Of a stretch of 64,000 nt of DNA, positions 29,680-31,687 are shown piece by piece. The position numbers were made by a program, and so were the translations under genes. Origin of the DNA: a virus (taxonomy: Duplodnaviria; Caudoviricetes); IMG/VR virus record IMGVR_UViG_3300022602_000025; one strand, 5' to 3'. The notes beneath the pieces are model-generated. The model was not told where the DNA came from. It searched no databases and was given only the letters and a program-made list of their open reading frames with translations. Each line of letters starts with the position of its first letter. Position 1 is the first letter of the stretch.

Positions 29680-29991
29680 ATGAATAAAATTACAAAACAT
29701 CTTGAAGAAGTAAACCGTTTAACCTTTCAACATAAACTATGGTTATTGTTAAGCGGAGTTGTCGCGACAATTATAGTCGTATTTTTTATAGATCGCAACA
29801 TCATTCAAAATTCAAACGCATTCTGGATCATAATAGGGTTAGGCGCAGCAATAACGGTAGTATGGTGGTATTGGACTATGAAGATAGTACACCGCCTTAT
29901 AAGCCATCGTCGAGAAGAATCTGAAATACTACACGATCTCGTAAAGTGTATTAGAGAAATTAGAGAAGACGTAAAAAACTTACCGAAGTAG
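29680..29991 (+). CDS. Two-TM membrane protein
   Basis: Two hydrophobic segments. Confidence 0.6.
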   Translation: MNKITKHLEEVNRLTFQHKLWLLLSGVVATIIVVFFIDRNIIQNSNAFWIIIGLGAAITVVWWYWTMKIVHRLISHRREESEILHDLVKCIREIREDVKNLPK

Positions 29992-30019
29992 TTGACAACA
30001 GTAAATAAGAGTATATAAT
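29992..30019 (+). promoter_or_regulatory. sigma70-type promoter for queD
   Basis: TTGACA-16-TATAAT. Confidence 0.75.
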
Positions 30020-30026
30020 TATACTA

Positions 30027-30067
30027 TGCGGTCTAGGCGTCATCCCGCAATATAAACTCTGCCGCCA
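30027..30067 (+). promoter_or_regulatory. preQ1-I riboswitch-like leader
   Basis: P1 TGCGG/CCGCA, loop TCTAGGCGTCATC, A-rich tail ATATAAAC. Sits between the TSS and queD. Confidence 0.5.
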
Positions 30068-30090
30068 TTGCTAATCTTAAGGAGACTACA

Positions 30091-30618
30091 ATGGCAAAAT
30101 TTTACTCAACAAAAACTTACGGAAACGATCGCGGCTTATCATGCTGTTTTAGACAATGGCGTGCCACACATAGCCACTGCTCAACACTACACGGTTATTC
30201 AATTGGCATCAAATTAATCTTTGAATGTGATACACTAGATGACAAAAACTGGTGTATGGACTTTGGCGGACTCAAAGAATTTAAAGAGTGGGCAGATCAT
30301 ATGTTTGATCATACTTTGGTAATTGCTGAAGATGACCCAATGCTAGATCGATTCAAAGAAATGTCAGGCTGGAGTTCAAATCCAGAGCATGATAGTAACC
30401 CAGAACGTGTACAAGTAGAACCATTCCGCCGTCAAGGCATCTGTGATTTACGTATTGTACCTGCTGTTGGTTGCGAAATGTTTGCCAAAATGGCATACGA
30501 CAAAATGGCTGAATTGCTAGCTTCTGGCAATATGCGTTATCCAATCAATCCAAGTGTGCGTGTAAAAAGCGTAGAAGTATTTGAGCACGGTGCGAATTCC
30601 GCTACATACGAAGGTTGA
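30091..30618 (+). CDS. queD: 6-carboxytetrahydropterin synthase (QueD/PTPS family)
   Basis: HCSTLHGY, DFGGLK, FDHT and V..VEVFEH T-fold motifs. Confidence 0.85.
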   Translation: MAKFYSTKTYGNDRGLSCCFRQWRATHSHCSTLHGYSIGIKLIFECDTLDDKNWCMDFGGLKEFKEWADHMFDHTLVIAEDDPMLDRFKEMSGWSSNPEHDSNPERVQVEPFRRQGICDLRIVPAVGCEMFAKMAYDKMAELLASGNMRYPINPSVRVKSVEVFEHGANSATYEG

Positions 30619-30643
30619 TCTTTACCAAAGTCTGTGTTATAAT
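30615..30643 (+). promoter_or_regulatory. sigma70-type promoter (leaderless gene follows)
   Basis: TTGATC-17-TATAAT with TG extension, ATG after a 6-nt gap. Confidence 0.7.
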
Positions 30644-30649
30644 AGTACT

Positions 30650-31687
30650 ATGACACAGACACTTAAACGCATTGGATTTTGTTGTAAATGGATCGATGGT
30701 CCTAGCCAAATTGACGGGATCAAACAAACTGACACAGCAAAGAAATATAACACCGGTACAACTACTGTCGCTTGGTTAAATAGACAAACAAGGGATGTAG
30801 CGGAGCAAAAGTTATGGGACCTAATGGTAGGCAATATCGAGGCAACTCGATTATTAGTAGAGCGTGTCGGGCAGCTTGAGCCTTCTCTTCGCATGGTTAG
30901 GATTAGCAGCGACATCCTGCCTGTTTATACTCACGCTGATTTTGCTGATTATTGGCGTAAACCTGACGTTGTTTCATACGCCGAAACCCACTTTAAGAGA
31001 GTGGGTGATATTGCTCGCGATCGCGGTGTGCGGCTTTCTTTTCATCCTGGGCAGTTTACTGTGTTGGCAAGTGATAACCCAGGAATTGTCGAGCGGTCGA
31101 TTGCAGAATTTGAATACCACGCAGACATGGCCCGCTGGATGGGGTACGGAAGAAACTTCCAAGACTTCAAAATCAACGTGCATATCGCCGGACGTCAAGG
31201 ACCAGAAGGCATCCGCAGAGCGTACCAAAAACTAAGTCCAGAAGCACGTAACTGTATTACAATCGAAAACGAAGAAAACTCTTGGGGGTTAGATGACTGC
31301 TTATCTATTTCTGATATTGTCCCTATTGTGCTTGATATACACCATCATTGGATCAGGGAAGGAGAATACATCGATCCTACTGACCAAAGAGTACAAAAGG
31401 TTGTTGATAGTTGGCGTGGTGTGCGCCCTGCTTGCCATTACTCCGTATCTAGAGAAGATGTCTTGGATATTAGAGAACATCCCACTAGGCCCGAAATGGC
31501 CCTGCTGTTAGAGCGAGGTTACAAAAAACAAAAACTCCGTGCTCATTCTAATTTCTATTGGAATAGAGATGTTAATGAATGGGCACTGAGTTTCTTGGAT
31601 AAGTTTGATATCCAGTGCGAAAGCAAGGCTAAAAATCTAGCTAGTTTCGCACTTGCCAAGCAAGCAAAAGAGCTTAACTTGCTTTAG
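30650..31687 (+). CDS. uvsE: UV damage endonuclease
   Basis: RIGFCC, RISSDILP, RLSFHPGQF, TIENEE and VLDIHHH motifs. Confidence 0.92.
   Translation: MTQTLKRIGFCCKWIDGPSQIDGIKQTDTAKKYNTGTTTVAWLNRQTRDVAEQKLWDLMVGNIEATRLLVERVGQLEPSLRMVRISSDILPVYTHADFADYWRKPDVVSYAETHFKRVGDIARDRGVRLSFHPGQFTVLASDNPGIVERSIAEFEYHADMARWMGYGRNFQDFKINVHIAGRQGPEGIRRAYQKLSPEARNCITIENEENSWGLDDCLSISDIVPIVLDIHHHWIREGEYIDPTDQRVQKVVDSWRGVRPACHYSVSREDVLDIREHPTRPEMALLLERGYKKQKLRAHSNFYWNRDVNEWALSFLDKFDIQCESKAKNLASFALAKQAKELNLL

Follow-up and report, generated by a model that had tools for sequence, protein, structure and literature searches.

A widespread riboswitch-like pseudoknot with preQ1-I-like architecture and opposite predicted logic in the queD leaders of uncultured phages

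The preQ1-I riboswitches, catalogued as RF00522, comprise types I-III, with examples such as those of B. subtilis queC, T. tengcongensis, C. antarcticum and E. coli, and carry a specificity C directly 5' of the 3' strand of the helix P1, preceded by U or A (PMC11625349). All the described classes of preQ1 riboswitches are OFF switches (PMC11625349). The THF-II riboswitch (folE motif), a hairpin with an internal loop located before folE in the Rhizobiales, is also an OFF switch (PMC6800512). The present analysis concerns the short leader of a queD-like gene in a 64,000-nt stretch of DNA from a lake phage (Duplodnaviria; Caudoviricetes; IMG/VR record IMGVR_UViG_3300022602_000025), the whole of which is hereafter referred to as the window. 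A preliminary description had proposed that this leader is a preQ1-I-like element, which exerts feedback control on a phage queD. The locus was compared with its relatives in viral, bacterial and archaeal sequences, and no public description of such a motif was found in the literature.

The queD leader lies in the gap between a small membrane-protein ORF (29680-29991) and a QueD-like ORF (30091-30618), the latter with profile matches to Pfam PF01242 (E 4e-16), to phrog_2389 'QueD-like' (E 2e-36) and, weakly, to TIGR03367 QueD. The encoded protein is 44-49% identical to the QueD of cultured phages carrying queC/queE/folE clusters. The stem TGCGG/CCGCA, the loop starting with TCTAG and ending in C, the A-rich tail and the 12-nt spacing to the SD that had drawn attention to the leader are all present in the sequence: the 13-nt loop TCTAGGCGTCATC (30032-30044) begins with TCTAG and has C as its last base, and the leader tail downstream of P1 reads ATATAAAC. 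The parts of the locus are as follows.

29992-30019, plus strand: sigma-70-type promoter, with TTGACA at 29992-29997, a 16-nt spacer and TATAAT at 30014-30019 (12/12 consensus matches)
30027-30031, plus strand: 5' strand of P1, UGCGG, with 30045-30049 as its partner
30032-30035, plus strand: L1, UCUA, consisting of a variable first base, conserved C and U, then 0-4 variable bases
30036-30039, plus strand: 5' strand of P2b, GGCG, 4 bp here and 4-7 bp in relatives, with the register set by invariant flanks
30040, plus strand: U30040, opposite C30062 in a conserved U-C mismatch
30041-30042, plus strand: 5' strand of P2a, C30041 and A30042, in the pairs C30041-G30061 and A30042-U30060 (class-level covariation)
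30043-30044, plus strand: L2, UC, a variable base and the conserved C adjoining the 3' strand of P1
30045-30049, plus strand: 3' strand of P1, CCGCA, covarying with 30027-30031
30050-30059, plus strand: L3, AUAUAAACUC, with conserved A at positions 3, 5 and 7, followed by Y, U and C
30060-30062, plus strand: 3' strand of P2a, UG (30060-30061), plus C30062 (class-variant scans)
30063-30066, plus strand: 3' strand of P2b, CGCC, complementary to and covarying with GGCG at 30036-30039
30064-30070, plus strand: 5' strand of P3, GCCAUUG (anti-start), with GCC common to the 3' strand of P2b (folds and P3 covariation)
30075-30085, plus strand: inner hairpin of UCUU (30075-30078) with GAGA (30082-30085) of the SD region (minimum-energy fold, window sequence only)
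30079-30084, plus strand: SD, AAGGAG, 12 nt 3' of CGCC
30089-30095, plus strand: 3' strand of P3, CAAUGGC, including the start codon AUG at 30091-30093 (fold)
30091-30618, plus strand: QueD/PTPS-like gene of 175 aa (PF01242, phrog_2389), the putative regulated gene

The consensus promoter at 29992-30019 places the predicted transcript start at about 30026, at the foot of P1 and one base 5' of the stem. A -10-like box ends 3-11 nt (mode 7) upstream of P1 in 61 of 140 distinct relatives. At the other end of the gene, a second promoter-like site (30615-30643; TTGATC, 17 nt, TATAAT, with TG as an extended -10) lies over the queD stop codon, upstream of a UvdE-like gene (30650-31687); given this site at its stop, queD may be monocistronic. 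The QueD of the window has an insert of ~21 aa (SSNPEHDSNPERVQVEPFR...) at 30332-30442 (residues about 81-117) that is absent from other subfamilies, and the transcripts of relatives carry unrelated 67-100 nt in place of the insert stretch.

The single-sequence fold of the window leader was no better than those of shuffled sequences (z -0.89) and, therefore, the case for the structure rests on the comparison with relatives. In a plain MAFFT alignment, 93.9% of the cells in P1 and the GGCG/CGCC helix were paired against 76.9% in shuffled alignments, with both-sided changes in 6 of the 10 P1/P2 pairs; the covariation score of the two helices was 0.461 against 0.156 for the shuffles, none of 500 shuffles scored as high and slid controls reached <=0.12. 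A gapless P2 alignment of the three sequence classes discussed below had both-sided changes in 7/7 pairs and a score of 0.927 against 0.267, although its rows were picked by class pattern, so that the P2a pairing in it arises by selection and P2a is properly supported by the variant counts contrasted further below. In all of the 52 distinct leaders, the bases 5' of the loop UCA are complementary to the bases 3' of UCUGC. P1 takes forms such as UGCGG/CCGCA, AGCGG/CCGCU, AGAGG/CCUCU, AGUCG/CGACU and AGUGG/CCACU in these leaders, and P2b forms such as GGCG/CGCC, GGCAU with AUGCC or AUGUC, GACGC/GUGUC and AUGGCAU/AUGUCAU. Among 113 distinct aptamers, AU and UA occur at P1 pair 1, CG, AU and UA at pair 3 and GC and CG at pair 4, while each P2 pair shows 3-6 pair types (four to six at pairs 1-3); the loop forms a mean run of 4.5 bp with its own tail and of 1.3 bp with the tails of other sequences. 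Comparative evidence thus confirms the leader element as an H-type pseudoknot, with covariation of P1 and of P2, including the GGCG/CGCC pairing proposed earlier, in over 110 distinct relatives. The other pairing offered in the preliminary description, AG/CT, was discarded, since the loops of relatives do not conserve CTAG.

While the helices vary freely, about ten unpaired and mostly pyrimidine bases at the junction are constant. The equivalent of C30044 is invariant in the protein-selected alignment, and the base before the L2-terminal C is U in 81, C in 19 and A in 9 of the 109 distinct aptamers with a 5-nt L2. L1 begins with ACU in 45, UCU in 40 and CCU in 28 of the 113 distinct aptamers. 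Positions 4 and 6 of L3 (30053 and 30055) covary with P1 pair 3 (30029/30047), with MI values of 0.88 and 0.83, respectively: where the pair is C-G, position 4 is U or C and position 6 is A, and where it is A-U or U-A, position 4 is A and position 6 is U, C or G. Such covariation may reflect a loop-helix triple, with L3 placed in the groove of P1 as it is in preQ1-I, or an effect of shared ancestry. The refined model predicted from these comparisons has a P1 of 5 bp, an L1 of NCU plus 0-4 nt, a P2b of 4-7 bp, the U-C mismatch, a P2a of 2 bp, an L2 of 2 nt (N, C) and an L3 of 10 nt (N-W-A-H-A-N-A-Y-U-C).

The extent of P2 beyond the mismatch was examined through natural variants. Two weak covariance-model matches carried paired changes in the 'invariant' bases, namely UAA with UCUUC and UCG with UCCGC, and the combinations were counted in pattern scans of viral contigs, the counts being lower bounds. 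The canonical UCA/UCUGC gave at least 120 matches, with QueD downstream in 118 of the 120 listed, and the double variant UCG/UCCGC gave at least 120, with QueD downstream in 119 of the 120 listed; 37 matches were listed for the double variant UAA/UCUUC, 16 of them with QueD downstream. The single variants UCA/UCCGC and UCA/UCUUC had 5 and 61 viral-contig matches listed, respectively, none with QueD downstream. As the double variants are common before queD and the single variants were not found there, C30041-G30061 and A30042-U30060 are read as base pairs; on this comparative evidence the loop UCA is paired with the tail UG, and P2a extends P2 beyond the U30040/C30062 mismatch. The natural classes UCA/UG, UCG/CG and UAA/UU are also ready-made mutant controls. 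A change of the L2-terminal C to U was found in 12 matches listed, of which the 3 with QueD downstream represent one distinct sequence. These three (L363, L364 and L368, with identical leaders) have UCACU and not UCAYC as L2, with P2 intact and one P1 pair broken; the element precedes a QueD-like gene and is the sole natural variant of the candidate specificity base listed. It may be either a decaying copy or one with a changed specificity.

A protein-based search identified 359 relatives in IMG/VR, with the leader element in all 79 loci that include upstream DNA; of 79 close QueD relatives chosen by protein similarity (45-95% identity), 50 carried the element, and its absence from the other 29 is a point against the riboswitch reading given below. 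Conservation upstream of homologous phage queD genes, on which the preliminary description had made its proposal depend, was thus found. The core pattern, which covers L2-P1'-L3 only, matched at least 120 viral contigs; P1 and P2 are present on reading in 120/120 of those listed, and 95 of the 120 pass a stricter automatic P1/P2 test. The same pattern matched at least 120 times in 596 Gb of bacterial and archaeal genomes, with P1 and P2 in only 2 of the 120 listed; the other 118 are regarded as chance matches, and the scan serves as a natural negative control. The two true instances in genome bins (L298 and L338) lie on ~6-kb contigs in Bacteroidota MAGs (Crocinitomicaceae in one case); phage DNA binned by mistake is their probable source, and they hint weakly at Bacteroidota as the host phylum.

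The element is located directly 5' of a QueD-like gene in 115 of the 120 listed viral matches, the remaining ones being followed by a cupin or an ORF without a family match and then QueD, or by a 306-aa PTPS; a QueD/PTPS-like gene is within the unit in 119 of the 120 listed core-pattern matches. On two contigs, L171 (6412-6750, minus strand) and L182 (4432-5160, plus strand), the gene between the element and queD encodes a 113-aa cupin or a 243-aa protein without a family match, and these genes are possibly extra members of the regulated unit. A covariance model detected one strong copy per record in 5/5 large phage records, each before the only PTPS gene, and no element before the folE, queE-like or QueC-like loci of these five records. 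With the same model, no second copy was detected elsewhere in the 64-kb window and none before the queD of Flavobacterium phage immuto, Burkholderia BCSR5 and Rhizobium RHph_N17, where the genes are tightly packed. A blastn search with the region and the 72-nt leader gave no real match in 50,697 phage records. The searches point to an element almost confined to uncultured phages, of which hundreds carry it, with one copy per genome before a QueD/PTPS-like gene. Contigs with the queD and leaders of relatives, including the UCUGC-P2' segment, were also found in four lake metatranscriptome libraries, and none of these contigs covers the exact window sequence 5' of 30079. They are a weak hint that the leader is transcribed in the lake samples, DNA carry-over being possible.

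The bases of P2' pair with the SD/AUG zone in the minimum-energy fold of 126 of 130 distinct leaders, and blocking P2' changes the mean dG from -9.1 to -4.3 kcal/mol; the corresponding values for the window leader are -12.1 and -3.7, with -6.1 for the P2 duplex. The resulting helix P3 shows covariation of its own: the base after CAU in the tail (tail+1) and the base before AUG (AUG-1) form C-G in 48 and U-A in 28 cases, and the base before CAU (tail-1) and AUG+4 form U-G in 48, C-G in 17 and U-A in 12. Genes beginning with AUGACUU have leaders with AAGUC in P2' and GACUU in the loop, and other types of platform include CCUAUG with CAUAGG (SD) and, in class 2, ACUCC with GGAGU. The loop strand of P2 would in effect be a decoy for the start region. 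Since the bases GCC of the P2b 3' strand are common to P3, the helices P2 and P3 cannot coexist, and formation of the pseudoknot should free the SD and AUG, an ON logic, if a ligand stabilises the pseudoknot. In all known pseudoknot riboswitches, the ligand stabilises the pseudoknot. The comparison establishes P1 and P2 with their covariation, the exclusive link to one kind of gene and the exclusion between P2 and P3, from which we infer the ON direction, since the binding of a small molecule is itself inferred. The feedback control suggested in the preliminary description is at odds with this prediction, the 3' strand of the pseudoknot being part of the helix that sequesters the SD and AUG.

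We read 30027-30066 as the sensing part of a riboswitch-like RNA, uncatalogued and specific to phages, with which the queD-like mRNA begins and in which the ligand-bound pseudoknot would turn expression ON. A probability of roughly 60% is assigned to this reading. In the absence of the ligand, the more stable P3 (30064-30070 with 30089-30095), together with the inner anti-SD hairpin, would bury the SD and AUG and keep the gene OFF. A small molecule at the P1/P2 junction would lock the pseudoknot, and the locked pseudoknot would withhold the anti-start strand, turning the translation of QueD ON. The general features of a riboswitch, namely a covarying structured aptamer, a link to genes of one pathway and a mutually exclusive platform, appear to be present.

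The conserved junction bases could instead have a protein-related or a purely structural role. A further reading, though an unlikely one, is a leader that acts independently of any ligand by setting a fixed, or a temperature- or Mg-dependent, level of translation or by protecting the 5' end of the mRNA from RNase. The location of the element at the extreme 5' end of the predicted transcript agrees with such a function; however, about ten invariant junction bases and a pseudoknot strand resembling the start region are more than a stabiliser or thermometer needs, and the exclusive tie of the element to one enzyme family, in phages that differ widely, speaks for a pathway-specific signal. Slightly less probable again is a protein-binding operator, with a phage translational regulator or QueD itself deciding between the pseudoknot and P3. 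The conserved single-stranded bases and the single copy per genome before one gene would fit autoregulation of this kind, but the RNA core is near-invariant while the QueD-like proteins encoded downstream belong to different subfamilies, including the canonical HGH-type QueD, with identities to that of the window as low as 27-32%. The two contigs with another gene before queD also speak against an operator, as does the failure to find any candidate regulator gene linked to the element.

The gene folE is absent within the 64-kb window. The search for folE, queE, queC and dpdA recommended in the preliminary description was carried out in five large relatives, two of which are >=91% complete. FolE is present in 5/5, along with a single PTPS gene in each and, in 5/5, a QueE-like radical-SAM gene located 3-13 kb from folE; the QueE-like gene of G002, the only record scanned against PHROGs, matches phrog_2076 (E 5e-51). 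QueC gave weak partial matches only. TGT/DpdA (PF01702) was not detected in the five records, which may be incomplete and in which DpdA3/4-like proteins may escape Pfam, and neither was YhhQ (PF02592). The presence of FolE, PTPS and QueE-like proteins suggests that the lineage can probably make 7-carboxy-7-deazaguanine, and a 7-deazaguanine pathway is plausible.

In G002 (156.7-164.6 kb; L084 and L227), the neighbours of folE are a cupin ('cysteine dioxygenase', phrog_4786) and a phosphoribosyltransferase; the QueE-like gene is nearby, and no QueC or DpdA was detected. Flavobacterium phage immuto (L356) has a similar queD-queE-PRTase-folE cluster. The arrangement of folE, cupin and PRTase suggests a nucleotide-level route for a 7-deazapurine. 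The element also draws attention to a pathway of lake jumbo phages that has FolE, QueD, a QueE-like protein and a phosphoribosyltransferase and no detectable QueC or DpdA. The jumbo phages G001-G003 (the IMG/VR records behind L018, L044 and L073) also have 10-14 radical-SAM genes each, partly clustered (e.g. at 240-264 kb in G002), which is far above the needs of nrdG and queE.

Pyrimidines make up nearly all of the conserved junction bases (C30044, C and U in L1, the terminal U and C of L3 and the U-C mismatch). The similarity to how a purine is enclosed in purine riboswitches favours a guanine-like heterocycle as the ligand. Our guess is, therefore, a compound of the 7-deazaguanine or pterin pathway, with preQ0, CDG, preQ1 or the substrate dihydroneopterin triphosphate as the guessed candidates. 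It would be out of the ordinary for a pathway product to switch ON a gene of its own biosynthesis, which means that the model is incomplete or that the ligand is something other than the end product; the ON logic would fit a substrate or precursor signal at the folate branch point (dihydroneopterin triphosphate) at least as well as an end product. The more specific proposal of a new phage-confined riboswitch class, derived from preQ1-I or convergent with it, which senses a compound of the 7-deazapurine or pterin pathway (possibly the substrate dihydroneopterin triphosphate, or CDG or preQ0 as an intermediate) and turns translation of the branch-point enzyme QueD ON, is held tentatively, at somewhat short of an even chance. 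If true, it would be without precedent both as an ON-type relative of the preQ1 riboswitches and as a riboswitch class known chiefly from viral genomes; if the ligand were confirmed, it would mean that viruses evolve their own metabolite sensors for timing a nucleobase-modification pathway. The element would then probe which pathway intermediate matters during infection, and a 40-nt scaffold working in the reverse sense to preQ1-I would offer synthetic biology a compact ON switch of natural origin.

The layout foreseen in the preliminary description, an H-type pseudoknot with a 5-bp P1 and a C next to P1', was recovered, whereas membership of the preQ1-I family was not. Rfam searches at the gathering score with the window and the loci of 20 relatives gave no preQ1 or other relevant match, and at E<=10, with a 131-nt piece of the window and a 116-nt piece of L001, only the spurious RT-12, rli52 and P31 appeared, with E of ~1-8. 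A divergent but bona fide preQ1-I riboswitch, repressing queD as product feedback on binding preQ1 or preQ0, is the least likely of the alternatives: the 5-bp P1 with a G-C top pair, the C adjoining the P1 3' strand, with U before it in most cases as in type I, the A-rich loop after P1 and the preQ0-pathway gene all recall that family, but the 116-131-nt searches gave no RF00522, RF01054 or RF02680 match at the gathering score or E<=10, L1 opens with a variable base, against the conserved U or UU of preQ1-I on top of the P1 5' strand, the last bases of L3 pair with the loop, and P2', which is without the SD, competes with the start-sequestering helix and so implies ON logic. The leader element is best described, from comparison of sequences, as a real, widespread and publicly undescribed riboswitch-like pseudoknot with a preQ1-I-like architecture and the opposite predicted logic.

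Several known systems share one or the other of its properties. SAM-II, SAM-V, guanidine-III and fluoride riboswitches are also H-type pseudoknots with a compact pocket and loop-helix contacts; however, the consensus and gene context of the queD leader are unrelated to theirs, and none of them was matched in Rfam. Like THF-II, which recognises a heterocycle with a guanine-like face, the queD-leader element is a small translational element associated with the pterin branch that starts with FolE, but the phage folE loci are without it and there is no Rfam match. The add adenine riboswitch of Vibrio vulnificus is a translational ON switch with a three-way-junction purine aptamer, in which the ligand-bound aptamer withholds a strand that otherwise pairs with the SD/AUG; the queD leader similarly has a competing sequestering helix, although it is a pseudoknot and shares no sequence similarity with add. 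The likeness to preQ1-I is the most extensive: both are H-type pseudoknots of ~40 nt with a 5-bp P1, a G-C top pair, a C directly 5' of the P1 3' strand (in the queD leaders mostly after U, as in type I) and an A-containing loop after P1, and the queD-leader element too precedes a gene of the preQ0/queuosine pathway, with translational control predicted here. It differs from preQ1-I in its near restriction to uncultured phages and the lack of a covariance-model match, in a much longer P2 (2 conserved bp, the U-C mismatch and 4-7 variable bp), in an L2 of only 2 nt and in a variable first L1 base (A 45, U 40, C 28) before the conserved C and U. Its L3 carries A at alternate positions (conserved at 3, 5 and 7) and covaries with P1 pair 3, yet it has 10 nt with UC at its 3' end and leads into a P2 of 7-10 layers, against an A-rich L3 of 6-8 nt running into a short P2 3' strand in preQ1-I. 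Finally, whereas the P2 3' strand of preQ1-I overlaps the SD or favours a terminator, P2' of the queD leader lies outside the SD, which is 12 nt downstream, and forms the anti-start strand, so that the predicted response is ON where that of preQ1-I is OFF.
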